A stretch of 64,000 bases of DNA from Candidatus Gastranaerophilales bacterium. Lineage in GTDB: Bacteria > Cyanobacteriota > Vampirovibrionia > Gastranaerophilales > Gastranaerophilaceae. The notes beneath the pieces were generated by a model. That model was not told the DNA's origin. It saw only the letters and a program-made list of their open reading frames with translations, and did not search any database. Below, one piece after another: positions 1-43,300 of this stretch (position 1 is the stretch's first letter; each line of letters opens with the position of its first letter). The stretch lies in assembly GCA_944325885.1 (NCBI GenBank), contig CALVBT010000003.1, positions 40,251 to 104,250 of the forward strand, written 5' to 3'. The position numbers and the translations under genes were made by a program.

Positions 1-994
1 TATAACTTTTTAAATCAGAAATAATTCTATCGTAAAGAAAATTTAAATCAGCATCTGAATTAGCAAATACTTCAAGTGACAAATCATTCAATTCTTGTTG
101 AATAATATTATATTGATCAACAGTTAAAATATTGGCTTTAATTAGAGTAATTACTCCATTTAAAACCGGCAGGTAACTATTTATAAGATTTTTCGCTTTT
201 GTTAGCAGTGTATTCTGAGCATCAAATCCAATTTTGGAGAAAAGAGCAGGTTCTAAAAGTATAAAACTATCTACTATTTTTAGGTTCATTGTAATTTGAT
301 GCCAATCTGCATTAGGTAGCTTAGCAATATCTAATTTCTTTAATAAAACATACAAAATATTTATTCCAAGGTTAACTTCTTGTATTTTTGTATTTTTAGT
401 CAAATATTGATCTAACTTTTTTAAGTATTCATTTATAAACAATATTAAATTATCTGTGTCAATTCTGTTAAGTAACAAATTTGTATGCCTTTCTATCGAA
501 GCAGGAAAATTTGCGACGTATAACATATTATCGGTAAGTTTAGAAATCTCCTGTTTTATATTGTTTTTTGTAAAATACAGTGTTTTTGCCAGTATTATAT
601 CTATTACATCAACAAAGGCACTATCAACATTTTCTAATTTAGGACTTGCGTTATATGGATGAGCATATATGCATCTATTTTCATAAATTTGTTTTAATTT
701 ATTTTCTTCAATTGCATCAATAAATCCATATTCTTTTGCTTTTGTTAATATGATTTTATCAGTTGCTTGTTTTCCATTAGCAGTATTAGTAATTTCATCA
801 TAAATTTTTTTTGCAGCCGGATCCGTTCGGCTTAATTGTTTAAATCTTTCAACAATAGATTCTATGCAAGCAAGCCAAATTAATATATATGCAGCTCTAT
901 ATTGTCCACAGTTAATAACTTTAACTGCATCAGTTATTAAAACTTTATCAGTGTCTTCCGGGATTTTTTTTATATATTCATTATAATCAGTCAT
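1..994 (-). CDS. Prophage accessory protein with DUF4145-like N-terminal helical domain (partial; C-terminus lies beyond window start)
   Basis: Absent from the ORF track because it is truncated. My own minus-strand translation is open from the ATG at about 992-994 down to base 1 (MTDYNEYIKKIPEDTDKVLITDAVKVINCGQYRAAYILIWLACIESIVERF...LKQIYENRCIYAHPYNASPKLENV...). The ATG overlaps the stop of the upstream 82-aa ORF (ATGACTGA). The DUF4145 resemblance is from a remembered family pattern, not a search. Confidence 0.55.
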   Translation of the reverse strand, partial: MTDYNEYIKKIPEDTDKVLITDAVKVINCGQYRAAYILIWLACIESIVERFKQLSRTDPAAKKIYDEITNTANGKQATDKIILTKAKEYGFIDAIEENKLKQIYENRCIYAHPYNASPKLENVDSAFVDVIDIILAKTLYFTKNNIKQEISKLTDNMLYVANFPASIERHTNLLLNRIDTDNLILFINEYLKKLDQYLTKNTKIQEVNLGINILYVLLKKLDIAKLPNADWHQITMNLKIVDSFILLEPALFSKIGFDAQNTLLTKAKNLINSYLPVLNGVITLIKANILTVDQYNIIQQELNDLSLEVFANSDADLNFLYDRIISDLKSY

Positions 995-1235
995 TTATTA
1001 TTGAATCCTCTAGCTCAAACTTTTTGTACAGCAGCATTCGTAGCTTTTCATAGGCTCTAAAACGTTGAATCATGTCTTCCGTAATAGTTGAATCATAATC
1101 ACAATCTGGTATTGTGTAAGCATAAGACTTATTTTTTTTCTTTATATCCTGAAACAGCCTGATATGGTCGTCATAATAACGCACATTCAAATCTGCTATT
1201 TCTATCTCCTGTTTTATCCGTTTTAAAGAGTCCAC
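987..1235 (-). CDS. Hypothetical small prophage protein (82 aa)
   Basis: ORF track. Same strand and tight spacing with the phage genes. Its stop overlaps the start of the downstream partial CDS, suggesting translational coupling. No recognisable motif. Confidence 0.5.
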   Translation of the reverse strand: MDSLKRIKQEIEIADLNVRYYDDHIRLFQDIKKKNKSYAYTIPDCDYDSTITEDMIQRFRAYEKLRMLLYKKFELEDSIIND

Positions 1236-1279
1236 ATTCTTATCCCCATTGACATCATGGTATATAAAAAAAGAAAAAG

Positions 1280-1299
1280 TTCAATATTTACATATTGAA
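1280..1299 (-). promoter_or_regulatory. Perfect dyad TTCAATAT-N4-ATATTGAA between mor and the next operon; candidate activator (Mor-type) site / middle-promoter element
   Basis: Read directly: ttcaatatttacatattgaa. On the minus strand it is followed about 20 nt later by a -10-like TATATACC and then the 82-aa ORF start at 1235. Phage Mu Mor acts at a promoter with an upstream dyad (established knowledge); the assignment here is inference. Confidence 0.3.
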
Positions 1300-1329
1300 C
1301 TGAAGAATATATGCCTATTAGGAAGAAGT

Positions 1330-1623
1330 TTAAGATGAACTTTTCTTTCTATGCTTATTTATTATGTTGTATATGTGCCGAGGGGTTAGTTCGCATTCTA
1401 TTGCCAGTTTATTTAGTGAGTACTTTGAATTTTGATAGTTTGAAATAATATATCGCTCTTTTAGTTTATTTAAGGCATTCTTTGGAATGGAAACAATCAA
1501 CCCGGGTGTGCATATTATCAATGCCAGAGCAGGTTTAATTCCTGCTGTTTCGGCTATGAATTTCAGGTCGTCATTCGGCATATCATCAGGTGTTACACCG
1601 TTTAACCACTGTTTAAATTCCAT
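1330..1623 (-). CDS. mor: Mor-family transcriptional activator (Mu middle operon regulator-like)
   Basis: 97 aa. The pattern DLKFIAETAGIKPALALI...IVSIPKNALNKLKERYIISNYQNSKYSLNKLAIECELTPRHIYNII matches the Mor layout (x-IYIPK-x-RN-x-I-x-F-x-G-x-LA-x-Y-x-LS-x-IY-x-I). GAGGA RBS upstream. Lies in a Mu-like early region. Confidence 0.75.
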   Translation of the reverse strand: MEFKQWLNGVTPDDMPNDDLKFIAETAGIKPALALIICTPGLIVSIPKNALNKLKERYIISNYQNSKYSLNKLAIECELTPRHIYNIINKHRKKSSS

Positions 1624-1663
1624 TTAATCCTCATGTCAAATCTCCGATTATGAAGTATAAGCA

Positions 1664-1685
1664 GTGCAGGGAATTTTCCCTGCAC
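1664..1685 (-). terminator. GC-rich 9-bp hairpin (GTGCAGGGA/TCCCTGCAC) between the early genes and mor; possible attenuator/terminator
   Basis: Read directly, just downstream of the 91-aa ORF stop (1691) on the minus strand. The following tract is only moderately T-rich. Confidence 0.35.
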
Positions 1686-1690
1686 TATTG

Positions 1691-1966
1691 TTATGCGTTA
1701 ATAAGCGTATCAATGGTATTGTTTTTAAAAGCTTGAGTTAAATCAGCTTCAAGCTCTTTTAAAACAAATATTTTAGATCTTAAAATTTCAAAATTTCTTG
1801 CACTATTTGCAACTTTATTTAAAGAAGCCATCACATCTTTTATGTTTTCCGGTCTTTCTTCTTGTAATAAACCTTCAGCAAAGATTTTAGAGTTTTCTGC
1901 CAACTTAGCTTCTAATGTTTTTTGCTTTTCTTTGATAATTGTTAAAACTTGCTCTTGTGTATCCAT
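1691..1966 (-). CDS. Hypothetical prophage early protein, coiled-coil (91 aa)
   Basis: ORF track. Co-directional and tightly packed with the GemA-like and Mor genes. No motif recognised. Confidence 0.5.
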   Translation of the reverse strand: MDTQEQVLTIIKEKQKTLEAKLAENSKIFAEGLLQEERPENIKDVMASLNKVANSARNFEILRSKIFVLKELEADLTQAFKNNTIDTLINA

Positions 1967-1989
1967 TGTTATTCTCCTATTTATGTGTG

Positions 1990-2448
1990 CTAAACAGATG
2001 TGGCCGCATCGTCTAAATTTTTCTTCATACGGGTAATTGCTTGGATCGCTTTTATTCCTTTTTCTTTTGTTAAAAACGCCGTATCTTCTATATTGAATTT
2101 CTTTCTTAAAAAAGTTCTTAATGATTGTTTTGCAAACTTGTCTGTATCTTCATAACTAAGCTCACGCCAAAGCCCTTCTATCATTCTTCTTTGCGCTCCA
2201 GTTGCCATATATGATGCACGTGATGAATCATCATATTTTAATGGCTGTTTTATCCATAGATTTGCTTTTATTGCATTATCTTCCAATATTTCGAGAATAA
2301 TTTTCGCTTCAGTGTATGTAAGATTTTTAGATGTGGTAACATCAAAACTACGCAGCATATTGCGGTATGTGTTATCATCAATACCAAGAAGATTTTTTAA
2401 CGTATGAATCTTTCTTATTTGAAATTTAGTGATACTGTATGCTCTCAA
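1990..2448 (-). CDS. gemA: GemA/gp16-like regulatory protein (DUF1018 family)
   Basis: 152 aa. IRKIHTLKNLLGIDDNTYRNMLRSFDVTTSKNLTYTEAKIILEIL matches the remembered DUF1018 pattern (I-x-x-IH-x-LG-x-DD-x-YR-x-L-x-S-x-x-L-x-EA). Non-ATG (TTG) start in the track. Sits downstream of the MuB-like gene, as in Mu. Confidence 0.7.
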   Translation of the reverse strand: MRAYSITKFQIRKIHTLKNLLGIDDNTYRNMLRSFDVTTSKNLTYTEAKIILEILEDNAIKANLWIKQPLKYDDSSRASYMATGAQRRMIEGLWRELSYEDTDKFAKQSLRTFLRKKFNIEDTAFLTKEKGIKAIQAITRMKKNLDDAATSV

Positions 2449-2566
2449 TACCGAGTTCCTCCAGTTGAATATGTCTGCCGTGATAAATACCTATTTGAAC
2501 TCCGATAATTAAAATTGTTAGGAGTATCAGTAATGTATAAAAAATTTTTGAAGTATTAAATTCCAT
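2426..2566 (-). CDS. Small membrane protein (46 aa), prophage early region
   Basis: Own translation: MEFNTSKIFYTLLILLTILIIGVQIGIYHGRHIQLEELGIESIQYH, one TM helix. AGGAG lies 5 nt upstream of the ATG, immediately after the MuB-like stop. Too short for the ORF track. Confidence 0.45.
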   Translation of the reverse strand: MEFNTSKIFYTLLILLTILIIGVQIGIYHGRHIQLEELGIESIQYH

Positions 2567-2574
2567 CTATTCTC

Positions 2575-3450
2575 CTACACCATAAGTAATAGCGATGATT
2601 TTTCTATTACAAGCTCATCAATTCTGTCTTTTTTGTTGATTTTGGCAATAAAAAGAGAATGCGAAATTAAATTGGAAAGCGTTCTCATATTACCATCCGA
2701 ATATTTTAAATATGTGGAAGCAAGTGAAAGGTCTATATGCATTGCTTCAAGAACTTTCATTACATCTTGTATTGATAATTTATTGAGTGATTTATAATAT
2801 TTAACTCTTGAATACAGTTGTTTATATTCAGTCATATGCAGATAAAGTTCAGAGGCACCAATGAGAAGAATACCGATTCCTGTTTTATCATGTATTCTGC
2901 GTGCCATTTCCAATGCACTGTATTTCAGTTTGTCAGCCTCATCTATGATTAAGAATCTGCCGGAATTATACAGTTTATTTAAAACTTCACATTTTAGTTT
3001 ATATGTTGTTCCTGTACCTGAGAGGTTTAATCTTTTGTGAATATCTAACAAGAGTGCTTTTGCAGAGTAACTTGAATCACTTTCTATAAGAATGCTGTCA
3101 AGATATTTGTCTGTGTATTTTTTTATTGCATAAGTTTTTCCAAGTCCCGGTTGTCCTGTGCAAACACCAATTTTTCCGCTAGTATGACAAACTCTGCTTA
3201 TTTCGTGAACATACTTTACTGTTGATGTTTCTATATATGGAATTTCTTCTTCAACAACACGTGCTTCTTCTCTATCAATAAAGTTGTTTACAACATCAAT
3301 AATACGATTGTCTTTTCCTGTATAATCGTGATTTAGCCAGCGGCTAATATCTGTTTTTGTTAATTCAGTAGCCTGAACAACATCTGCGTAAGAATAATTT
3401 TTCTTTTTTAGTAAGTTAATAAATTTTTCTTTTAAGTCCATTTTATGCAC
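2575..3450 (-). CDS. MuB-like AAA+ ATPase (DNA transposition protein B) with N-terminal HTH
   Basis: 291 aa. N-terminal HTH (DVVQATELTKTDISRWLN), Walker A GQPGLGKT, Walker B LIIDEADKL. Start overlaps the stop of the transposase gene. Confidence 0.8.
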   Translation of the reverse strand: MHKMDLKEKFINLLKKKNYSYADVVQATELTKTDISRWLNHDYTGKDNRIIDVVNNFIDREEARVVEEEIPYIETSTVKYVHEISRVCHTSGKIGVCTGQPGLGKTYAIKKYTDKYLDSILIESDSSYSAKALLLDIHKRLNLSGTGTTYKLKCEVLNKLYNSGRFLIIDEADKLKYSALEMARRIHDKTGIGILLIGASELYLHMTEYKQLYSRVKYYKSLNKLSIQDVMKVLEAMHIDLSLASTYLKYSDGNMRTLSNLISHSLFIAKINKKDRIDELVIEKSSLLLMV

Positions 3451-5401
3451 CCTTGCTTTCCTTCTCTAATACGCAATCTGTTTCAAATAAAAATAGACGT
3501 TCTTCTTGAGTTTTATTGCGTTGTTCAAATACTGAGAGGTCAAAATTATTCATCTCAGCCATTAATTTACTTTTTTGTATAGCTTTATCCATATTGGTAT
3601 TGGCTATTTTTGAAATTTTAGGATTTATTGCCGGTAAATCTTTTTGATATAAAGCTTTGTAGTTTGCACATTGTTCATTTAAGCTAATATCTTGAGTTCG
3701 TTTAATAAATTCTTTAGCTACCTTTAGATTTCTTTTTTTTGCAGACATAGCCTCTTTGAATTCCTGTTTGGAAACTATATCTGCATCCAATGCTGCAACC
3801 GCACTCATGGCAGAAACGTTACCTATAAATTCATCATTATCGGCACGGAACACCCACGCCTCTTTGTAATTTTGAATATCTCGACGAAGATAAACTTTGA
3901 GATCAGTACGGGCTGACATCCAGTCTGCCCAATATGTAATCCCAAGTTCATTGTCCCTGATACCGTTTCTGCCTATTCTAAAAATGCGGGATGTTCTCAT
4001 ACAGAATAGTTTGAGAGCATCTTTGGAAGTTATAATTTTTTCCGTGAATTCCTGATTAAACAGTTCATCTGGACAAAGACCTTTAAGGTTTTTACCTTGA
4101 GACGGTTTTTTATTTAGAATATTAATTACAAAATCGTCAAATAGTTCCTTGAATTCATTAAAAGGCATAATTTTGCCTCTTTTAATTTCTTCTTTTAGTT
4201 TTTCAGGACGTTCAAGAATATTTCCGCCTCTGTAGCCTACTGCGTGCTTTGACAAAAGTTCTTTTATCTTTAAAAAATCCCTTTCAATGGGCTTTGTCTG
4301 ACCATTGTAAGGTTGAGCAAAATGAACTTTTATATTTAATTCTGCAAGCATTGAAGTTGTTTTCACTTCGTCTGTTTCAATAGTTATTCTTTTTCGTCCT
4401 CCGGCAAAATCTCTACACCGATAATCTTTACCATTGTCAATAATTACATCACTAGGAAGTCCGAATGCTCTTGCAGCATAATAAAAGGTCTGAAAAATAT
4501 GGTCTGAATTTGGGTGTCCTGTCTGTAGCAACCAACCAAGCCATTTAGAAGATTTAAAATCTCTCCACGCTGTTACCCAAGGAAAGACTGCATCTCCTGT
4601 TTCATTAAGACAAGCTATATCTATTTGAGCGTGGTCAGAAACCCATACTTTGCCGCAGGTAATATTAGAATAATCACGTTCTATATAATTGCTATATTTA
4701 CGATTCCAAGCCGACTGACCATAACGTGCAAGATAAATCGCCTGCTTAGGAATTTCTTTTTCCAATCTTCTTCTGAAAGAATGATGGCTTGGAAACATTT
4801 TAATATCAAAATTTTCACGAAGTGCATATCCTTTAGTCTGTTCCCAACAAGAGTACAGAGATGGTGCGCCTTCTTTTAGATATAAATTTTTGAAATATTC
4901 ATATAGTTTATCGTCAACTATTGTTTCTCCTGCTCTTTTTCCATATTGAGCAAGTAATCCGTTTAACCCAAATTCTTTATATCTTTGACGCATTTTTCTG
5001 ATAGAAGAGTAAGATGTTTGAAAGCACGGATTGCAACAATTCCATTTTGCAACAAAATCAATCAATGATTTTCCCGTCAAATTTTCACACGCATTCAGAA
5101 TGTTAATATATTTATCTGCCTGAACTTTAGCCCAAACAGGTGCATCTGAATAAGAATCTTGGTTGTATCTGAAATCCTTAAATTTTTTCAGATACTCTTT
5201 TTGGATATTATCTGTTAACGATGAAACATTTATATAATACAAGTGCTTTGTGCCGGATTGTTCTATTTTAAAGCAGAATTCTCCTTTTGAACATTTCTGT
5301 CTTAATGTTTTAGGTTTAATGTTCAAGATGCAGCAGGCTTCTTCTTCGTTAAGCCATTGAGGAATATTTTCGTTTATTTCGTTAATCGGCTTCATTAACA
5401 C
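3443..5401 (-). CDS. MuA-like DDE transposase (rve core plus Mu-type N-terminal DNA-binding domain)
   Basis: 652 aa. Candidate DDE residues sit in VWVSDHAQIDI, VIIDNGKDYR and PYNGQTKPIERDF. Winged-helix-like N-terminus. Followed by the AAA+ partner gene. Confidence 0.85.
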   Translation of the reverse strand: MLMKPINEINENIPQWLNEEEACCILNIKPKTLRQKCSKGEFCFKIEQSGTKHLYYINVSSLTDNIQKEYLKKFKDFRYNQDSYSDAPVWAKVQADKYINILNACENLTGKSLIDFVAKWNCCNPCFQTSYSSIRKMRQRYKEFGLNGLLAQYGKRAGETIVDDKLYEYFKNLYLKEGAPSLYSCWEQTKGYALRENFDIKMFPSHHSFRRRLEKEIPKQAIYLARYGQSAWNRKYSNYIERDYSNITCGKVWVSDHAQIDIACLNETGDAVFPWVTAWRDFKSSKWLGWLLQTGHPNSDHIFQTFYYAARAFGLPSDVIIDNGKDYRCRDFAGGRKRITIETDEVKTTSMLAELNIKVHFAQPYNGQTKPIERDFLKIKELLSKHAVGYRGGNILERPEKLKEEIKRGKIMPFNEFKELFDDFVINILNKKPSQGKNLKGLCPDELFNQEFTEKIITSKDALKLFCMRTSRIFRIGRNGIRDNELGITYWADWMSARTDLKVYLRRDIQNYKEAWVFRADNDEFIGNVSAMSAVAALDADIVSKQEFKEAMSAKKRNLKVAKEFIKRTQDISLNEQCANYKALYQKDLPAINPKISKIANTNMDKAIQKSKLMAEMNNFDLSVFEQRNKTQEERLFLFETDCVLEKESKGA

Positions 5402-5603
5402 AATAGTCCTTGATTTTTATATCGAATACTTTTTCAATAAGATATAATTCAAGCTCAATGCTTTTTCTTTCGCCGGTTAAATACATACTGACTGTGCTAT
5501 TTGCAACGTGAATTTCTTTGGCAACCTCTGTAACCTTCAAGTCCAAAATCATAAAAATGAATTTAGCAGTCAAAATTTTAGGTATATAACTAATATTTCG
5601 CAT
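5382..5603 (-). CDS. Ner/Cro-like small HTH regulator
   Basis: The track ORF is 5382..5699. I prefer the internal ATG at 5603, which has AGAGG upstream and gives 73 aa. HTH VTEVAKEIHVANSTVSMYLTGER. It is the first gene of the early operon and overlaps the transposase start. An even shorter start at 5552 is possible. Confidence 0.55.
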   Translation of the reverse strand: MRNISYIPKILTAKFIFMILDLKVTEVAKEIHVANSTVSMYLTGERKSIELELYLIEKVFDIKIKDYCVNEAD

Positions 5604-5751
5604 AAAAAATTTGACCTCTGATATGTGTGATGCTGCCAACAAAAAAAAGGCAAAGCCCAATTGTCTATGTATTTTCCGTTTGTGGCTATTTTTTATCAAT
5701 TGTCTTTATATGAACAATTATATTTATGCGGAAATAAAAATAAATACCTGA

Positions 5752-5800
5752 AAAACAAAGCCTGTGAAGGATTTCACAGATAAAATAAGGGCTTTGTTTT
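5752..5800 (-). terminator. Long hairpin (AAAACAAAGCC ... GGCTTTGTTTT) with flanking T/A runs; bidirectional terminator-like insulator between the two transposition modules
   Basis: 11-bp complementary arms read directly. The loop contains the TGTGA-N6-TCACA palindrome. A T-run follows on the plus strand (ttttttgatttttttt) and TTTTT on the minus strand. Confidence 0.45.
5763..5778. promoter_or_regulatory. Palindromic operator-like site TGTGAAGGATTTCACA upstream of the Ner-like/early operon
   Basis: Perfect TGTGA-N6-TCACA dyad read directly, 64-160 bp upstream of the candidate early-gene starts. A related site is repeated at 5862-5875 and 9341-9360. Confidence 0.45.
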
Positions 5801-5861
5801 TTTGATTTTTTTTAGTTTTAAATAATAACTGGATTTAAAACTTTCACAAAAAATACAAAAT

Positions 5862-5875
5862 TGTGAAATATTTCA
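5862..5875. promoter_or_regulatory. Second copy of the operator-like sequence (TGTGAAATATTTCA)
   Basis: The 15-nt string ttgtgaaatatttca (5861-5875) is identical to 9342-9356. Confidence 0.4.
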
Positions 5876-5885
5876 TTACAATTTC

Positions 5886-6560
5886 TTAACAATTCATTAA
5901 ATTACAAAGCTCATTAACCAATTGTGTATAATTTTTTCCATTTCGCCATATAACTTCAGCAATATGAAAATGTGTATAATATCGCATTGTATTATGAGCT
6001 AATTTTCTTTTTATTTTTGAATATAATTTACAAAATTCTCTAGCTTCTGAAGCTGAAAACAATCTACCATCAAGAGAACAAAGCGGTCTATCAGCAATAT
6101 AGTACTTTGACTTAAAACTATAAAAATAAAAACTTTTATTAAAAAAGGTTCTTTCTCTCGGAATTTGAGAGCTTTTTGAGATTAATAACTCACACTCTTG
6201 TAATTGTTTTTGGTAGATTACTTCTCTAATACTTTTAAATATTATTGATACCCTGTTTTCACATAAATTAATTACTTTGGAAACTTTTTCAACAGGTATT
6301 TCAGCACAAAAACACCTTATTAAAAATTCGGTATTTTCGGCAGGATAATTATCTATTACATACATTAATTTATTATTTTTAATAACAGAATCCTTTTCTA
6401 TATAAATATAGTAACCATCTTTTAGAATTAAATTACCATTTTGAATTAAATCTTGTAAAATCGGCTCTAGTTCTTCTATTGAAAATTGAGAGATTAAAGC
6501 AATTCTATCCAAACTGAACATATTTAGGTGTTTGCAAAGTCGCAATATTTTTTCTTTCAT
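5886..6560 (-). CDS. IS1595/ISXO2-like transposase-derived protein lacking the DDE core; N-terminal winged-helix-like extension
   Basis: 224 aa. Two blocks resemble the HTH and C-terminal blocks of short ISXO2-like transposases as I remember them (LIELF-A-TA-AA-L-GVN-T...LR-I and IE-FW-AKR-L-KF-G...LKECE-RFN): LIRCFCAEIPVEKVSKVINLCENRVSIIFKSIREVIY and EFCKLYSKIKRKLAHNTMRYYTHFHIAEVIWRNGKN. The central DESYFGG/DDE region is absent. Overlaps the upstream AAA+ gene by 17-56 nt. Confidence 0.55.
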   Translation of the reverse strand: MKEKILRLCKHLNMFSLDRIALISQFSIEELEPILQDLIQNGNLILKDGYYIYIEKDSVIKNNKLMYVIDNYPAENTEFLIRCFCAEIPVEKVSKVINLCENRVSIIFKSIREVIYQKQLQECELLISKSSQIPRERTFFNKSFYFYSFKSKYYIADRPLCSLDGRLFSASEAREFCKLYSKIKRKLAHNTMRYYTHFHIAEVIWRNGKNYTQLVNELCNLMNC

Positions 6561-7242
6561 ATAATAAATTCCTTATAACTTCTGCATCTACGTAATCTAT
6601 AGAATTTGTTTTTGATAACTTTTCAATCTTGTCGATAATTTTGGCAATTTCTCTAAATTTATTAGTTTTATTTGCAATAAAATCTATAGCATCATCGCTA
6701 AACTCTATATCAGACAGGGATGTAACTATTTCATTAATATCCTGTTTATTAAATGCTTGAAATTTTAAAATAGAGTATAAACGCCCATAAATATGACTTA
6801 ATTTTGAAAGTTTTCTGTCACAATCTGCCATCCCGACAAGAACAATAGGAATTCCGGTTTTGTCATGAATATCTCTTAAGGTTTCTATTGATTTGTTTGC
6901 AATAAGATAATCAACCTCATCGACAATAATTATTTTGGGGTTTACTTTTAACTGTTTTTCAATAGCATTAAAGTTGTCTTCCAGTCTTCCGTAACGAGAT
7001 GTATCTAACTGTGAAAGAATATCGTGCATTAGCCATCTGCTGGTCATTTTATTGTTTGCACGAACATAGATAGCAATATCATAATTTTGCATTACCCACC
7101 ACAGAAGTGTTTCCGTCTTCCCTAGTCCTTGCTCACCATAAACAAGAGCCATTTTCGGAACATTAACAGGTAGATTTTTTAATGTATCCATTAAAGTTGT
7201 AAACATTTTGACGTTTTTGGTTTTTAAAAATGTATTTTTCAT
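6505..7242 (-). CDS. TniB/TnsC/MuB-like AAA+ ATPase (transposition helper), no N-terminal HTH
   Basis: 245 aa. Walker A GEQGLGKT, Walker B IIIVDEVDYL. The block IHDKTGIPIVLVG is paralogous to IHDKTGIGILLIG of the 291-aa MuB-like protein. Start overlaps the transposase stop. Confidence 0.8.
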   Translation of the reverse strand: MKNTFLKTKNVKMFTTLMDTLKNLPVNVPKMALVYGEQGLGKTETLLWWVMQNYDIAIYVRANNKMTSRWLMHDILSQLDTSRYGRLEDNFNAIEKQLKVNPKIIIVDEVDYLIANKSIETLRDIHDKTGIPIVLVGMADCDRKLSKLSHIYGRLYSILKFQAFNKQDINEIVTSLSDIEFSDDAIDFIANKTNKFREIAKIIDKIEKLSKTNSIDYVDAEVIRNLLYERKNIATLQTPKYVQFG

Positions 7243-9224
7243 TCATATAGCTCCTTGTACTCATCTGTCATTTTGTAATTCTGTACCCACTCCCTGTCTT
7301 CAGCAGATGTGCATCCGTTTTCTTTGAACCATTCATAGCGTTCGTAGTTTGAACTAAACAATGGTCTGTTCATCTGAGCTTCACGGAGAGTCGGCTTCTT
7401 TTCCCGTTTCGTTTTTGTTTCTTCTATAATTTCAGGAATTACATCAATAATGTCATCTTCAACCTTTTTATCAATAAGCAGTAGATCCTGATCAGGTAAA
7501 ATTTCTTTGACCTTCTTGAGAATTCTGTTTTTACGCTGCTTCTGTTTTTGGATTTTCTGTCTGAAATCTTCCATATCAGCAACATTTCCGAGATAATTTG
7601 CCATAGGGTTTGTTTTAGTTACCCTGTTGGCGGTACAAATGTATTGACCGTCTAATGAATAAACAAGTACTTTTGAAATATCAAAAAGGCTGTAGCGTAT
7701 GTAAACTCTTTCTCTGTAGCCGACAAGCATTTCATTGAAATAATGTGCATCAAGAAACGATATCCCGTTACGCTGTATTGTTCGTATTTCACTTTTCATC
7801 ATTAAATAATCAAGCGTGTGTTGATTTATATCTTCTCTTGCAACAGTATTTAAACACTGTTTAATCGTCATTTCACGTGCATTGGGACAGGGCTTTGAGT
7901 TGTGATAATTTAACCAGTAATCAATTAACTGTATTGCCTGTTGCACAGTTGGAATTTTGTTTTTTACAGATTTTTCATATAACTTCTTGTGAAACTTCTC
8001 ACCTCTGTTTAATCTCGGAGGTTTTTCACTAATAGATGTACCGATGTATGAATTCATTAACTTTTCAAACTCGGCAAATTCTTTAAAGAACCTCTCTATT
8101 ACTTTGGCTTTTGCATTATACGGTTTTGCAAATACCGGCTTTATTCCCAAGTTTTCATATACACCGTTAAACCCTTCTTCATTAAAATTACAATGCTGAA
8201 AATACTTAGCCTTAAACGCTCTGCCATTGTCTTGATAAACAATTTTAGGAATTTTTCCGAGATTTAAAATGGAGTTTCTTAATGCACTTGCAATACACTG
8301 GGTATTTTCTGTCATCATAATTTCATAACCAACAAGAGCTGTTGACTTCCAATCTAAAAAGCCAACGAGTGTTGCTCTCGTGGGCTTGCCTGTGAACGGA
8401 TTAATGACTTCAAAATTAAGAACGTGTCCGTCAGCAACTAAGACATCTCCGACTTCTATCTTTGATAAATCACGTTCAATGTATGGTTCAACTTTATCAT
8501 TCAAGGCTTTTTCGCCTTCACGCATTAATGTCCAGACATCGAATTTAGTCTCTTTGAAATGGTTTGCATATCTTCTGAAAGTTGACTCGGACGGAATATC
8601 CTCACAACCTTCGTTCTCTAAAATATATCTGGTTAAAGAAATAGCTTTGCTTATCGTAATTTTATTCGGGTGAAGCAGAAACTTCAACAGAACTTGTTTC
8701 ATATGCTCATCAAGAGAACAATCGTACTCATCATATTTTGAATATCTGTATTGAGGCATAAGAGCATCAATTCCCATCTCATCGTATGCTTTAATCCATC
8801 TGTCAATTGTTCCTCTTGAAACATTGCCGATAAATGCATAAATCTTTTTGAGGTATAAACCGCTGTTATACAATTCTAAAAAGTTTTGCATAGCTTCTTT
8901 ACGGGTTTTAAATCTTGTTCTGAAATTCTGAAACCCCTTAATTAAATCAACACGTGCTAAAGCAGTCAGCTGAGCTTTTTCTTTAACAAACGATGCCGTT
9001 TTGTTATTCAACGGAACTAAAGGATGGAATTTATCTTCATCCATTAATTTATGCTGTAATTCAGGCTCAAGAGATGTGATAAGGATTTCGTAGCTCGTTC
9101 CGCCTTTAACCTTGACCTCTCTGTAGATATACTTGCTGAGGTTATTTCTTATGGAACGTGTGCTTTTCAGCCCTTTTAGTTTCGCTATTTTCTGTATGGG
9201 TATGTATTTATCTTGCATACTCAC
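7239..9224 (-). CDS. MuA/TnsB-like DDE transposase (second copy, paralogous to 3443..5401)
   Basis: 661 aa. Candidate DDE residues sit in VLVADGHVLNF, IVYQDNGRAFKA and PYNAKAKVIERFF. N-terminal HTH-like region (IQKIAKLKGLKSTRSIRNNL). Confidence 0.85.
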   Translation of the reverse strand: MSMQDKYIPIQKIAKLKGLKSTRSIRNNLSKYIYREVKVKGGTSYEILITSLEPELQHKLMDEDKFHPLVPLNNKTASFVKEKAQLTALARVDLIKGFQNFRTRFKTRKEAMQNFLELYNSGLYLKKIYAFIGNVSRGTIDRWIKAYDEMGIDALMPQYRYSKYDEYDCSLDEHMKQVLLKFLLHPNKITISKAISLTRYILENEGCEDIPSESTFRRYANHFKETKFDVWTLMREGEKALNDKVEPYIERDLSKIEVGDVLVADGHVLNFEVINPFTGKPTRATLVGFLDWKSTALVGYEIMMTENTQCIASALRNSILNLGKIPKIVYQDNGRAFKAKYFQHCNFNEEGFNGVYENLGIKPVFAKPYNAKAKVIERFFKEFAEFEKLMNSYIGTSISEKPPRLNRGEKFHKKLYEKSVKNKIPTVQQAIQLIDYWLNYHNSKPCPNAREMTIKQCLNTVAREDINQHTLDYLMMKSEIRTIQRNGISFLDAHYFNEMLVGYRERVYIRYSLFDISKVLVYSLDGQYICTANRVTKTNPMANYLGNVADMEDFRQKIQKQKQRKNRILKKVKEILPDQDLLLIDKKVEDDIIDVIPEIIEETKTKREKKPTLREAQMNRPLFSSNYERYEWFKENGCTSAEDREWVQNYKMTDEYKELYE

Positions 9225-9235
9225 AGATTAGCTCT

Positions 9236-9534
9236 AAAGTCGGAACTTTGGAGCTTTTTTACCGACTTATGTGTCTGAAGCGAAACAATTTATTTCGCAT
9301 AAAATTAAATACCGAGTTTCTAACAAAAAAGTACCGACTTCTTGTGAAATATTTCACAAGATTTTTGTTAATTTTCAAAAGTCCAACAAAAAAATTGCAG
9401 ATACTTTGAGCAAAATCGCCACTTGTGGCTAAAAAGCAGGATATGACTTGTTTAAAGGTAAAAACTTTTGAGGACAATTGGTGTCCATTTCATGGACATT
9501 TCAGTACTTTTGCTCAAACTAAAATACCGACTAA
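9236..9534. repeat. Array of five TACCGA(C/G)T-type motifs (GTCGGTA on the gene strand); candidate transposase-binding or regulatory sites in the element end
   Basis: Read directly: 9236-9248 aaagtcggaactt (inverted), 9257-9268 ttttaccgactt, 9307-9319 aaataccgagttt, 9327-9340 aaaagtaccgactt, 9521-9534 aaaataccgactaa. Confidence 0.45.
9341..9360. promoter_or_regulatory. Perfect 20-bp palindrome CTTGTGAAATATTTCACAAG (TGTGA-N6-TCACA core) upstream of the second transposase gene
   Basis: Read directly, about 120 bp upstream of the ATG at 9224. Shares 15 nt with 5861-5875 and the dyad architecture with 5763-5778. Confidence 0.5.
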
Positions 9535-9646
9535 AATGGACAGTAAGAGTCCTAATTTTAGAGCATTTGAGGGGCTTTGCTCGAAGTATTCGCAATTTCA
9601 AAAGTACTTGAAACAATACACTTAGATACAGAAAAACGCTATATAA

Positions 9647-9679
9647 ACAAAAAAGCTTGAAACTCAATTGTTTCAAGGC
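9647..9679 (-). terminator. Rho-independent terminator of tRNA-Ala
   Basis: On the minus strand: CTTGAAAC-AATTGA-GTTTCAAG (8-bp stem) followed by CTTTTTTG, starting about 10 nt after the tRNA CCA end. Confidence 0.7.
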
Positions 9680-9687
9680 TTATATAA

Positions 9688-9763
9688 TGGTGGAGGATAG
9701 GAGATTCGAACTCCTGACCCCCTGCGTGCAAAGCAGGTGCTCTACCAGCTGAGCTAATCCCCC
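9688..9763 (-). tRNA. tRNA-Ala: tRNA-Ala (anticodon UGC), CCA encoded
   Basis: The reverse complement reads GGGGGATTAGCTCAGCTGGTAGAGCACCTGCTTTGCACGCAGGGGGTCAGGAGTTCGAATCTCCTATCCTCCACCA (76 nt). It has a 7-bp acceptor stem with G3:U70, a canonical D arm, anticodon loop TTTGCAC, T loop TTCGAAT and a 3' CCA. Confidence 0.95.
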
Positions 9764-9950
9764 ACGAGATTTTTTGCTATATTCGCACCTGCTTTCAGGT
9801 GCTTAATTTCAAAACGTAAAGCTATCACTTTACTGGGCGTGAGCTAACTACCCACGAGATTTTTGCTATATTCGCACCTGCTTTCAGGTGCTTAATTTCA
9901 AAATGTAAAGCTATCGCTTTACCGGGCTTGAGTTGAACTCCACACGAGAG
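9751..9950. repeat. Tandem duplication (2.2 copies, 90/89-bp units) of the tRNA-Ala 5' end plus leader/promoter region
   Basis: Units 9751-9840 and 9841-9929, plus a partial copy at 9930-9950. Each begins gag(c/t)t(a/g)a...cc(c)acgaga and contains the hairpin gcacctg-cttt-caggtgc. The first 13 nt of unit 1 are the real tRNA 5' end. Units 1 and 2 differ by a few substitutions and one T indel. Confidence 0.85.
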
Positions 9951-14194: not shown

Positions 14195-15580
14195 ATGATA
14201 GAATCGTGTCTTATTGATTTAAAAAATAAAATTTACGGATATTTTCAAAAGAAATTTGAAAAAATATACAACAACAGTCTTATTTTGCAAAAAATAGATG
14301 ACATAATATTTCTGTTCATCGGAATCACACTCTTTGCATCAACTTTTATGCCCAGCGAAAGCATTGGTGCTTTTGCAATAGCTGTTGTTTTGCTTACTTT
14401 TGTAAAACTGTTTGTAAAACCTAACGCAAAAGTTGCAATGACATCGTGGGACGCAGCGATTGCCGTATATTTTATAATCTGTTTTATAAGCACAATAAAC
14501 TCTACGCTTGTACCTCAGAGCATACACGGCTTTTTAAAAACCGTTATTTATATATTTTATTACTTTTGTGCGGTGAATTATTTTCAAACCAATCAAAATA
14601 AAATAAAATACATCTTTCTTCTCGTCGGCAGTTTGTGCTGCGTAGAAGGAGTTATTGCAATTTATCAAAACTTTGCCGGAGTGGAACAAATCTCAACATG
14701 GCAGGACTCCAGATACGTAAACCCTGAAGACACAATTGCAAGAGCATACGGAACACTAAAACCCTATAACCCGAATCTTCTCGGCGGATACCTTGTTGCA
14801 GGGATGTCCTATGTAGCCGGAATAGTTGCAATGTTTCTTGTAAATAAAAACTGGAAACGTCTTATATTTGCCATTGCGGCACTGCTAGTATGTTCACTTG
14901 CTGTTTTTGTTACGGGTTCAAGAGGTGCATATCTCGGACTGGGGGCAATTTTTGCAGTAATGATTCTGCTTGTTACTTTTATTATTAACATTGATTTTTC
15001 ACAGGCAGAAAAATTAAAATCCATCTGGCACAAGGTAGTTGCATCAATAATCGGACTTTTTGTTCTGGTTTTGATAGCTGTACCCAAAATTACAAAAAGA
15101 ATCTTGTCCATATTCATTTTGAGAGGGGACTCTTCAACATCTTTCAGAATGAACGTATACCACTCAAGCTGGCAAATGTTCTGCGACAACTGGCTGCTCG
15201 GCATAGGTGCAGGCAATCAAACCTTCAGAGAAATTTACGGACTTTATATGCTCACGGGTTTTGATGCTTTGAGTACATATTCTGTTCCTCTGGAAATTGC
15301 AGTTGAGAGCGGGATATTCGGATTGATTGCATTTTTTGCATTTTTAGGATTGTTTCTTTTTGATTCGTACAAGTTTTTAAAATCAGTAAATAATACTAAC
15401 AGTCTAGCCGACAAGATTGTGGTTTGTTGTGCAATATTAACAATTGCGGGTGTGATGACTCACGGGCTGTTTGATACAATATATTTTAGACCGCAGGTGC
15501 AGTTCTTGTTCTGGACAATGATTGCAATGGCCTCATCTGTGTTGGTAAAAAAAGAAATTAAGGATACTTGCGAGGAATAA
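14195..15580 (+). CDS. O-antigen ligase family (Wzy_C) polytopic membrane protein
   Basis: 461 aa with many TM helices. Contains the GSRGAYLGLG motif region typical of O-antigen ligase/polymerase domains. Confidence 0.7.
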   Translation: MIESCLIDLKNKIYGYFQKKFEKIYNNSLILQKIDDIIFLFIGITLFASTFMPSESIGAFAIAVVLLTFVKLFVKPNAKVAMTSWDAAIAVYFIICFISTINSTLVPQSIHGFLKTVIYIFYYFCAVNYFQTNQNKIKYIFLLVGSLCCVEGVIAIYQNFAGVEQISTWQDSRYVNPEDTIARAYGTLKPYNPNLLGGYLVAGMSYVAGIVAMFLVNKNWKRLIFAIAALLVCSLAVFVTGSRGAYLGLGAIFAVMILLVTFIINIDFSQAEKLKSIWHKVVASIIGLFVLVLIAVPKITKRILSIFILRGDSSTSFRMNVYHSSWQMFCDNWLLGIGAGNQTFREIYGLYMLTGFDALSTYSVPLEIAVESGIFGLIAFFAFLGLFLFDSYKFLKSVNNTNSLADKIVVCCAILTIAGVMTHGLFDTIYFRPQVQFLFWTMIAMASSVLVKKEIKDTCEE

Positions 15581-40300: not shown

Positions 40301-43300
40301 AGCATAAGCATACAGAATCTCGGGATCTTTGGCAAAAGCATATTTGAAATTGGCAATTGCAATATCTTTTTGCTTTTGTTTAATCTTTTCCAGCTGTTGA
40401 ATATTATCGATTTTAGCCAGTTCCTTCCAGAAGGAAAGATACTCATAAGACATCTGCAACGCTGCTTTTTCAAATGTAACTTTTAAAACATCATCATCAG
40501 CCAGACTATCAAAGTCAGCTTTTGAAGTGATACCTTTATTAAAAGGAGTCGCCTGCAGTCTTTTCACAATATCGTCAAATTCTTTTTCATACAATCTTGC
40601 AGCTGTCTGGGATTGTACTTTTTTGGCTTTGATTTGGTCCACAGTCATATTTTTGGCCATTCTTGACAAATTGTCCACATACAGATAATCCGGAACAAAA
40701 ATAGCGTCTTTGAGCTGTGCCGCAATATCATCCGCCTTTTTAGAAATATCATTTATTAATATTGAAGAAATTAACGGGAACTTGTAGTGTTCCATTTCAG
40801 AAGAATTTGTCAACTTTTTGATATTTTTCAATTCTATATCAGAAGCAAAATGTTCTCCTGTTTTGTGAAGGAGATTTTCCACATAGTTGCCGTTTCTCCA
40901 TTTGTTATCGGTAATATATCCGAGTTCTCCGCCTCTTTTGTCGCTATAGTCGGTACGGGTAAGACCTTTGGAATCAATCCAGATATTTTCATGCTCGGAC
41001 GCACCCCATGTATTGTCGTGGAAGAGGATGTCTTTTCCGTCTTTTTCTTCTATTTCGGAAATATATTGAGCGTGCCAGCCCGGTTTGTCGTGGAAAACAC
41101 TCGTTGATGAAATACCCGAATGAGGCGAATTTTTAATTTTTTCAACAGCTTCAGGAACGCTGACAAAGGAATACGGCTTGTCTGTCAGGGATTGGAGTAT
41201 CTTAGCTTCCTGTCTATCAAAGAGTCCTGAGCTGCCTTCTGCAGGAACCCAGAACATGCCGGTATTCACACCGACATTTTTTGCCTGTTCTTCAAGAGGA
41301 ACTCTCAAATCTCTATATACTTTTGTGAGTTCTTTGTTTACAAACGCAGCCATTGAATTAACTGATTTGTTTATATTTTTTAATGCCAGTTTTTCCTGAT
41401 TTGAATACTTGTACAAAGATGGGTCAGAAATCTTGCCCTGTCTTGAGGAAAACTCGTCAGAGGAGCGGAGTTTGTCTATAGCATTGTATCTGTCCTGCAG
41501 TTTTTGCATATCATTTTCAGCAGCTATTTTGCCTTCGTTTTCCCAAATTTTTATGATTGCACTGCCTGGATTGGCTGTGTTAAGCAAGTTTCCGTTTTCG
41601 TCTTCAAATTCAAAGGCATTTCTAATATTAGCCAGAGAAATAGAAAAATTGTTAAACTCTTCCGACAATTCCTGAAGAGCCAGTTTGGATTCCAGAATCG
41701 GAGAATCTTCGCTCAGGCCGTTAGCAATGTTGAAATTTTTGATTATGAATTTGCTTGTTTCGTCCTCTGGTTTTTCCATTGCTTCTGCCAAAACATTAAA
41801 AGCATCCGCAAAAACTCTGAGCTGGTTTTTGTTGCCGGTTTTGTTGAAAATATCAATATATTCTTCATCCGTAATATTTTCGGACAAAGCTTTTTCAAAA
41901 TCATTATAAATATTAATTATTTTGTGTTTATCAGGTTTTATGCCGAGAGAAACAGCAGCATCCTGCAAAAGGATTTTGTCCCCGTTTTCAATTTCGGACT
42001 TCAAAACCTCGATGCTGTTTTTCATTGCGGTTTTTCGATTTTCAATGCCGAGTTTGCGGAAAAAGTCATCAAGCTCAACAGTATAGCTTTCTTTTACCGC
42101 ATCATAAAGCCCGTACAACAGTTCAAGTACAGACTCTTTGTCCGGTTCTGTCTGAAAAGCAACAGAAAAATGTTTTATATATCTTTCATCACCTGTTTTT
42201 TCAATATGATTTATGACTTTTGCTATATTTTCAACAAAAAACGTATCTGAGTCCGGCATATCGTAATAAATCATATAATCCGTTATCAAATCTTCATCGG
42301 ACAAGGATGAAATCAAAGCAGTCCTGTAGGCTGCTGCAGCATTGAAAAGTTTTCTGTCAAAGGCTATTTTGTCTTTTATATTGCTTTTTGCGTTTATTGA
42401 ATCTTTTATGCTGTTTGACATTTCAACAAGCTCTCTTATCTGTTGAAGATTTTTATCCGTTACCGCAGCATCAGCAGCTCCGTATTTTTCCATCAGATAA
42501 GCTTTTATTTTTTGTTCTTTTACAGAGGTTTCTTCATTCGGGAGAAAATGATATTTTGCAGTTCCGTCTTTTATTTTGTCTATTTGAGAAGAAACATCCG
42601 CCTGCAGTTTTTCTACATCATGAGCAATTTTTGTTCTTTGCTCGTCAGACAAAGAAGGAAACACAGCAGAAATCTTATTTTTCAGACTTCCCTGCAGCTC
42701 CTGCAGCATTTTTATATCAGAATCCAGATTATTCTGTCTTTTATTATATTTATACTGTTTTTTAAGTTTAAAAACCTTTACACTGTCCACTGTTTCCTTT
42801 GCTTTTAACAAAGACTGATAATATTTGTGTTTTGCCTTTAATTTTGAATCAGCAAGCGGCAATCTGTAATGAGAATCTTCAAACACAGAAAAATGCTGAG
42901 GGTCAAATGCTGTATAAACGCCCTGCGCAACTTTATCCGCACCGTACATATCAGCTATATTCATCCACTGTGTGGTAGATGCATCAACAATTCTATACCC
43001 CTTTGCCAGTGCAGTATCAAAATCCACATTTATCTTCGGAACCGAAATTTTTTGGCCTGAGCCGAGATTTGTGATGTCATAAATTTTTATACTATCCGTA
43101 TCATCCAGCTCTGACAACACTGTATCAACATACTTTTGTTTATATTCATAAGACATCAGCTTTCTTGCTATGGAAATAGCCGCACACATACCGTGGCTTT
43201 TTTGATTTATTGCCTTTGTGTTAGGGACTTTTGTAGCAGAATCAACAACTATATCGTTCAAAATTTCTGCCAGCACTACTGTTTTTTTGTCTGCGAGCTG

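Follow-up and report, generated by a model that had tools for sequence, protein, structure and literature searches.

Phages of the Mu type rely on one transposase for both integration and replication, with near-random targets and a 5-bp target duplication, and Tn7-like elements practise targeted transposition into safe sites. Here, we analysed a 64-kb stretch of DNA (64,000 nucleotides, termed "the window") from Candidatus Gastranaerophilales bacterium (GenBank assembly GCA_944325885.1, contig CALVBT010000003.1, positions 40,251 to 104,250), at one end of which two transposase/ATPase modules lie in tandem: module 1 (transposase A1 and ATPase B1, preceded by a Ner-like regulator) and module 2 (transposase A2, ATPase B2 and a third protein, C, together called the trio). 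Positions 1-9620 of the window are probably the left arm of one Mu-like prophage, a myovirus with two transposition machineries, in which the trio would serve tRNA-adjacent integration and MuA/MuB would serve lytic replication.

The locus shares with Mu and Mu-like phages (e.g., BalMu-1, D3112/B3-like phages and hankyphage) the Ner-MuA-MuB ... GemA ... Mor early operon, a TG tip at which the element starts and, in relatives, Portal_Mu, Mu_F, gp36/gp37, tail_S and a myovirus tail. Unlike in Mu, a Tn7-like transposase/ATPase/third-gene module stands between the left end and ner, insertion is beside tRNA genes with no 5-bp duplication seen, the late genes are partly inverted, and no divergent repressor gene stands at the left end of the element in the window. 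With Tn7/Tn5053-like elements, and specifically the TnsA-less core (TnsB-TnsC-TniQ) of type V-K CRISPR-associated transposons (CASTs), it shares a TnsB-like protein, a short TnsC/TniB-like protein and a small third gene by one end; defence-rich cargo in non-phage relatives and the TGT...ACA tips of two of them (L080 and L083) are further likenesses, as is orientation-specific insertion tens of base pairs downstream of tRNA genes (homing by CAST I-D lands 30-33 nt past the tRNA; PMC10293859). It differs from these elements in that the third protein is not TniQ or TnsD, TnsA and CRISPR components are absent, one element uses many tRNA species, and the payload is a whole transposable phage that brings along a MuA/MuB pair. 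In the text consulted (PMC11656645), "Mu transposons" are described as Mu-related cargo transposons of phage-like character, of which some carry I-A or V-F CRISPR systems. There, too, MuA/MuB-related genes mobilise non-phage cargo, and the relatives termed types (b) and (c) below are of that general kind; the elements studied here have no CRISPR guide, and two transposase modules or tRNA sites are not reported in that text (PMC11656645). No record in the INPHARED phage collection had two transposase matches (each had them at one place, where the window has both A1 and A2), and full-text literature searches returned no dual-module Mu-like phage and no description of transposable phages of Melainabacteria. 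The combination of a Tn7-like set and a MuA/MuB set in one Mu-like prophage was thus not found described.

Proteins of the window were assigned to families by Pfam and PHROG searches and to branches by searches against PDB sequences. Relatives (referred to by locus or contig number) are metagenome assemblies throughout, and element ends were defined by comparison only. The open reading frames (ORFs) of both modules lie where the original prediction had placed them, and all genes listed for positions 1-9620 are on the minus strand (Table 1, in window positions). The modules are homologous, as had been proposed (A1/A2: 27% identity over 411 aa, E = 1 × 10−20; B1/B2: 26% over 196 aa, E = 1 × 10−14), and the quoted IHDKTGI motifs are present. 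Their description as paralogous Mu-type modules is loose: the homology is real but distant, and within the superfamily module 2 groups with Tn7/Tn5053.

Table 1. Features at the element-bearing end of the window and at its host junction.
Feature	Position	Strand	Basis or remark
Host tRNA-Ala(TGC)	9688..9763	-	ARAGORN; Rfam tRNA 70 bits; oriented like the early genes of the element
Terminator hairpin of the tRNA gene	9656..9677	-	Element starts 35 nt past hairpin
Element left end (tip and subterminal repeats)	9225..9620	-	Homology boundary
A2, 661-aa DDE transposase, TnsB-like branch	9224→7239	-	Pfam, PDB match
B2, 245-aa AAA+ ATPase, TniB/TnsC type	7242→6505	-	Pfam TniB, PDB match
C, 224 aa, start overlaps B2	6560→5886	-	ORF map; candidate target selector
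Inter-module spacer, 186 bp	5700-5885	-	Hairpin, promoter-like hexamers for module 1
Ner-like HTH_3 regulator	5603→5382 (73 aa, public gene calls); longest ORF from 5699	-	Pfam
A1, MuA-type transposase, 652 aa (called 650)	5401→3443	-	Pfam, PDB match
B1, MuB orthologue, 291 aa (range 288-291)	3450→2575	-	PDB match
GemA	2448→1990	-	Pfam GemA, E = 6 × 10−16
Mor-like late-transcription activator	1623→1330	-	Pfam Mor, E = 2 × 10−4; phrog_836, E = 5 × 10−10
82-aa gene	987-1235	-	ORF map
488-aa gene, start only, runs off window	within 1..1235	-	ORF map

A1 carries the Pfam domains HTH_Tnp_Mu_2, rve and Mu-transpos_C and matches phrog_310 over its full length; its best PDB match was the phage Mu transposase (4FCY, E = 5 × 10−9). 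B1, which carries AAA_22 and an N-terminal helix-turn-helix (HTH) domain and matches phrog_296, aligned with MuB over its full length (8XVB, residues 5-271 to 5-279, E = 9 × 10−19). Because A1 best matches MuA and B1 matches full-length MuB, module 1 is an orthodox Mu early operon, and its layout is that of Mu, with a Ner-type HTH_3 protein upstream, MuB directly after the transposase, and GemA and Mor downstream. The presence of the last two, part of the original prediction, was confirmed by Pfam and PHROG; the Pfam score of Mor was 21.8 bits, below the gathering cut-off of 24.9, and the phrog_836 match backs the assignment.

A2 has the same Pfam domains (Mu-transpos_C, rve, HTH_Tnp_Mu_2) and a full-length match to phrog_310 (Mu transposase), and its sole PDB match was TnsB of the type V-K element ShCAST (7SVW, E = 2.7 × 10−4); MuA was not matched. 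B2 also carries AAA_22 and matches phrog_296, lacks the N-terminal HTH, and passes the Pfam TniB cut-off (33.5 bits versus 22.4), which B1 does not; its PDB match to VchTnsC (Vibrio Tn6677, E = 1 × 10−4) ranked ahead of that to MuB (E = 2 × 10−3). A TnsB/TniA-type transposase is therefore followed by a TnsC/TniB ATPase, and the PDB and TniB matches give module 2 the layout and affinities of a TnsA-less Tn7/Tn5053 core. The ORF map and Pfam show no TnsA gene in module 2; TnsA is also absent from Tn5053 and type V-K elements. Judged by these similarities, module 2 is a member of the Tn7/Tn5053-like TnsB/TnsC(TniB) branch with a third gene of its own.

That third gene, C, always follows B2 with an overlapping start and is kept in all trio loci. 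The window protein and 23 homologues gave a weak N-terminal MarR/ScaR-like winged-HTH signal. The "IS1595-like" label first given to C was abandoned, since DDE_Tnp_IS1595 and Zn_Tnp_IS1595 were absent in 24 homologues at E up to 1, and the winged-helix signal was the only one obtained. A TniQ-like identity was likewise rejected: no Pfam match to TniQ was found in 24 members, and profile searches of PDB, which includes TniQ chains, gave none at E up to 10. A single-sequence AlphaFold2 model of C had a mean predicted local distance difference test score of 36 and was unusable.

The outer boundary of the element lies outside module 2. The tip, 5'-TGTATTGTTTCAAGTACTTTTGAAATTGCG (also given as TGTATTGTTTCAAG... 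and TGTATTGTTTCAAGTAC), is read on the minus strand from 9620, 67 nt downstream of tRNA-Ala. When the DNA upstream of A2 was aligned, similarity between the window, L004, L003 and L005 began exactly at the tip; the flank of L003 differs from that of the window (its tRNA-Ala has a spacer of 94 nt to the tip versus 67 nt, and other flanking genes), and contig L005 starts at the tip base itself. The identical tip stands beside other tRNAs in L340, L341, L342 and L347, and the layout of tRNA, terminator and tip recurs in relatives, with a tip consensus (TGTAWTTTWAC) just past the tRNA terminator that is common to all three architectures described below, including trio-only elements. An exact search of IMG/VR with the left tip returned no match. 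Three AGTCGGTA repeats occur at the left end (9260-9267, 9332-9339 and 9525-9532, minus strand), out of four in the 64-kb window against 0.48 expected (the fourth, at 40948, is in host DNA), and related GTCGGAA motifs are present in trio-only left ends; these repeats are candidate transposase-binding sites. Neither AGTCGGTA (absent from the next 18.6 kb of the element) nor any tip-like sequence was found in the inter-module spacer. Where a search for Mu-type ends and 5-bp duplications had been suggested, around 5857 and 9620, a tip was found at 9620, the spacer showed no end-type motif, and no 5-bp duplication was seen.

Comparison of near-identical copies showed that the whole A2-to-Mor unit has recently moved to several tRNA loci. 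A dual-module phage with the same tip and an A1 homologue (P0125) 85% identical to that of the window was 98-99% identical over 13-16 kb in three contexts, after tRNA-Met(CAT), a second tRNA-Met and tRNA-Val(GAC), with its tip TGTATTGTTTCA(A/G)GTAC 47-55 nt past the tRNA in each case. The lineage of the window itself (A1 97% identical and the tip unchanged) was also found after tRNA-His, and after tRNA-Ala with two flanks. Across assessable GTDB loci, a same-strand tRNA was present within 1.1 kb upstream of A2 in 35 of 66 and an opposite-strand tRNA in none, where about 1% would be expected by chance (a rough estimate, not computed). By the architectures defined below, the counts were 9/12 for type (a), 4/11 for type (b) and 7/13 for type (c). 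Insertion beside the host gene was orientation-specific, the trio-proximal end always facing the tRNA, and lay 45-170 nt after tRNA genes, not near-random as in Mu. Since trio-only elements (L010, L013, L080/L083) are placed alike, tRNA placement goes with the trio. Copies of trio-only elements, which have no A1, also share 99-100% identity while standing in different contexts, and for mobility the trio is therefore enough.

To the junctions themselves belongs a further observation: in independent cases, the tip abuts T-loop-like sequence (GCGAGTTCGAA|TGTATTG, GGGAGTTCGAT|TGTATTT and GGAGTTCGAGCGG|TGTATTT; L347:2255-2275, L054 and L097 at ~1680-1695, and L047), sometimes far from an annotated tRNA, a hint that the target includes a DNA motif resembling the T-arm of a tRNA. 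Extra A2/B2 copies were seen near a first element, in tandem 12 kb downstream in L013 (21600-22160) and head-to-head in L103 (3860-6315), and because of these second copies, it seems that the same loci can accumulate arrays.

When an A2 alignment was used to scan the species representatives of GTDB, 464 relatives were returned, almost all in metagenome-assembled genomes of Gastranaerophilales/Melainabacteria, and 80 loci were fetched. The window's layout, A2-B2-C-Ner-A1-B1-GemA-Mor (type a), was found in 15 of them; 14 had A2-B2-C-Ner-A1 without B1, GemA and Mor (type b), 13 had the trio A2-B2-C alone (type c), one was type (a) or (b), and 37 were too short for typing. In 38 dual loci, both A1 and A2 were full length, with DDE motifs kept in 36, and the distance from A2 stop to A1 start was 1.63-1.93 kb in 37. 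Pairwise identities of A2 and A1 co-varied down to ~55% identity (r = 0.76; Mantel 0/2000). IMG/VR phage contigs retrieved through the late gene DUF4417, and for that reason unbiased with respect to the early region, included four dual contigs (L109, L119, L120 and L123), one trio-only contig (L115) and, where contigs were long enough, no A1-only contig. Judged by this pattern of sequence divergence, the tandem modules are a conserved, ancient and fixed part of the phage architecture.

The window stops inside the phage, which extends leftward past it, and a search by portal protein listed none from the window's lineage; the continuation is seen in L001, L003 and L004 as convergent lysis and tail genes (DUF4268, DUF4417, Amidase_2 and others). 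Type (a) elements, reconstructed by tiling of IMG/VR and Logan contigs, are complete Mu-like myoviruses, complete relatives measuring ~36-38 kb. Behind the early region, genes for lysis, fibre, baseplate, tape measure, sheath, capsid and protease form a convergent block, after which come terS, terL, Portal_Mu, methylases, Mu_F and tail_S; the Mu-type virion genes (Portal_Mu, Mu_F, gp36, gp37, tail_S, sheath and baseplate) are therefore shown in relatives, the window ending before them. In contig SRR21362684_14, the order runs from tRNA-Arg through the tip (ATAGTTTAA / (T)ATAGTTTAAC), A2-B2-C-Ner-A1-B1-GemA, the late genes, tail_S and DUF4357 to TTAAACTAT and host genes. In 43 kb, the 9-mer tip and its reverse complement are each present a single time, enclosing both modules in an element of ~35.8 kb, and no copy of the tip lies in the C-Ner spacer. 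The arrangement named beforehand as refuting two separate elements, a single pair of ends around both modules and no internal end, is seen in this complete relative; for the window, it is supported only by the absence of end-type motifs from the spacer. A trio-only element of 5.4 kb, present in two contexts (L080 and L083), has TGT...ACA termini with ACATTTT 15-21 nt from each tip; both ends of this kind were seen in L080/L083 only, the window showing the left TGT tip and its repeats. Long terminal inverted repeats were not found by blastn-short comparison of the left end with downstream DNA or by fuzzy searches for reverse-complement tips.

Other candidates were discarded: an 18-nt match from these searches in L037 lies inside an ORF and its flanks do not match, and a 12-nt match considered as the right end of c2227 lies inside a host-like DegT gene. 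After its last phage gene, c2227 has an invertible switch and possible cargo. Clusters of the AATGTAAT motif in c0624 gave no clear outcome.

Relatives without virion genes shed light on what the modules may do separately. The trio A2-B2-C alone forms small, mobile, tRNA-adjacent transposons. Type (b) elements keep the trio, Ner and A1 and have no virion genes; in place of B1 stands a homologue of the small-terminase-like protein that the phages encode (29-31% identity, E = 1 × 10−17 to 1 × 10−21), and the cargo comprises restriction-modification, HNH, Fic and AbiEii-like genes. Examples are L024:15820-16230, L084:15713-16144 and L012:9443-9853 and downstream. Because this is the gene set expected of something that integrates, replicates and is packaged, type (b) elements look as though they may be satellites of these phages, and the set fits integration by the trio and replication by A1. 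In L012 (1-9853), the left tip of the trio stands exactly after the stop codon of the MuA-like gene of another Mu-like prophage, giving the order S24 repressor, Ner, A1a | A2-B2-C-A1b-TerS-like, with three MuA-family genes in 8 kb.

These results show one composite element with module 2 outermost, its modules intact and co-inherited and its trio autonomous elsewhere. Among the explanations offered in the original prediction, that of one element with two transposition machineries is the one supported, by a boundary at 9620 outside module 2, movement of the block as a unit, and conservation and co-divergence of the layout across dozens of species. The same boundary, joint movement and co-divergence make the other two explanations unlikely at this locus: a nested or adjacent insertion of two phages, which also sits badly with one pair of ends and a conserved layout, and a satellite beside a helper prophage, although trio-only and satellite-like derivatives exist elsewhere. 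The apparent conflict between the tandem arrangement and MuB-type target immunity dissolves because both modules are one element. In the mechanism that we envisage, the trio would act like TnsB-TnsC plus a target selector, with C as a winged-helix protein replacing TniQ; an incoming phage would thereby be inserted in one orientation at a safe site, ~45-100 bp downstream of tRNA genes. Replicative transposition in lytic growth would fall to the MuA/MuB operon, which is under Ner control and coupled to GemA and Mor. We infer this division of labour as a hypothesis from the features above, and several points weigh against the reading as a whole. The mechanism takes both modules to act on the same outer ends, which is an assumption, and the single pair of ends was seen in one relative as a 9-bp inverted repeat with a chance probability estimated at ~0.05, the window stopping inside the phage. 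No 5-bp target duplication was recognised at any junction examined, including two-sided ones, and about half of the loci have no upstream tRNA. C is a candidate target selector by its position only, with no detectable TniQ/TnsD similarity. Retention of A1 in type (b) elements without virion genes could point, alternatively, to joint action of A1 and A2. Lastly, L344 (6166-8147), a copy with 99% identity elsewhere, has its A2 broken into ORFs of 255 and 376 aa. No other lesion of module 2 was seen among close relatives, and this one could reflect decay or an assembly error.

The main alternative, which we regard as possible although rather unlikely, is that A1 and A2 are two subunits of one transpososome (e.g., each acting on one end or strand) served mainly by B2. 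It would account for the non-phage type (b) elements that keep Ner-A1b beside the trio without B1, GemA and Mor; the constant spacing and close co-divergence would suit proteins that co-operate physically, and the left and right tips are only weakly alike. Nonetheless, trio-only elements lacking A1 are mobile, A1 in the phages has a complete MuB of its own, and a terminator separates the two operons. It is improbable that an autonomous Mu-like phage, with an internal left end in the C-Ner spacer, is the cargo of an autonomous Tn7-like transposon. Such a phage, replicating from an internal end, would lose the trio at every infection, the spacer has no left-end-type repeats or tip-like sequence, spacing is constant and divergence shared over 38 loci, and no A1-only phages were among the contigs retrieved by their late gene, even though the trio family exists as an independent cargo-carrying transposon, the trio element of L012 sits inside another Mu-like prophage, and Mu ends are hard to recognise from sequence alone. 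That module 2 is a satellite or mini-element lodged next to module 1 as its helper prophage, or the decaying remnant of a second phage, would agree with the small trio-only and TerS-bearing satellite-like relatives and with the one split A2. With the host junction outside module 2, both modules moving jointly to new tRNA sites, and both transposases intact (DDE in 36/38) despite divergence to 55%, we consider this very improbable.

If positions 1-9620 are indeed the arm of one prophage with two machineries, a broader proposal can be put forward tentatively: that a widespread phage lineage has split the two jobs of MuA, so that TnsB-TnsC with a new winged-helix selector, able to recognise tRNA loci in general, would integrate the phage at safe sites and MuA/MuB would replicate it by transposition, and that the integration module, with or without a MuA gene and a small-terminase homologue, may also be the source of satellite-like defence-island transposons. 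A conserved, recently mobile phage with both modules would show how random and targeted strategies combine and would explain how a transposable phage avoids insertional damage to a small genome. The trio, a compact module encoding a TnsB-like protein, a TnsC-like protein and a 224-aa protein that is not TniQ, apparently finds many different tRNA loci without RNA guides, making it a candidate for a new target-selection mechanism. For uncultured gut Melainabacteria, the loci together provide a first detailed view of the prophages, of derived transposons with defence genes and of possible satellites.

The modules appear to be separately regulated, which speaks for two machineries in one phage: a terminator-like hairpin lies between them, and module 1 has a promoter region of its own. 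The hairpin that had been noted in the 186-bp spacer was confirmed as terminator-like (5780-5761, followed by a T run on the coding strand; RNA fold z = −3.7). Perfect CRP-type palindromes (TGTGA-N6-TCACA) occur at 9343..9358 (TGTGAAATATTTCACA, upstream of A2) and at 5763-5778, inside the spacer hairpin, with a CRP-type half-site at 5862-5877, also in the spacer; a search allowing two mismatches returned 7 strand-matches versus 1.8 expected. These sites may be common operators of both modules or sites of a host Crp-family regulator. Past B1, small ORFs of 46 aa (before GemA) and 91 aa (between GemA and Mor) accompany the listed genes.

Mu keeps its repressor in a slot at the left end. The corresponding slot between tip and A2 is variable here: it is empty in the window (9225-9620), where no repressor was identified for the prophage, and holds a 127-aa minus-strand gene in L003 (1454-1837) and L005, a 159-aa GmrSD_N-like gene in L340 (5614-6093) and L342, and a 219-aa plus-strand gene in L341 (5434-6093). 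On the host side, two tandem 89-bp direct repeats (9771-9932, 95% identical, no Rfam match) lie directly upstream of tRNA-Ala; each opens with sequence resembling the leader and 5' portion of the tRNA (...ATCTCGTGGGTAGTTAGCTCA...), and each contains a GCACCTG-AAAG-CAGGTGC hairpin. At the right end of the phages stands a 180-aa tyrosine recombinase, which in L013-type mini-elements directly follows the trio. It adjoins a segment of ~170 bp with flanking inverted repeats (TTACAAAATGG) in front of a LuxR-like gene, and because the segment has opposite orientations in L055 (~14230-14460) and L128 (~2100-2350), it is apparently an invertible switch; further places for these observations are L013:14143-14430 and L263:16700-17040. 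Finally, at the tRNA-Met junction of L341 (5060-5125), the left tip is repeated in tandem three times, each copy longer than the one before (TGTATTGTTTCAGGTAC / ...TTTTGA / full end), and L342 has shorter tip-like repeats; the repeats in both may be scars of repeated end joining at one site.

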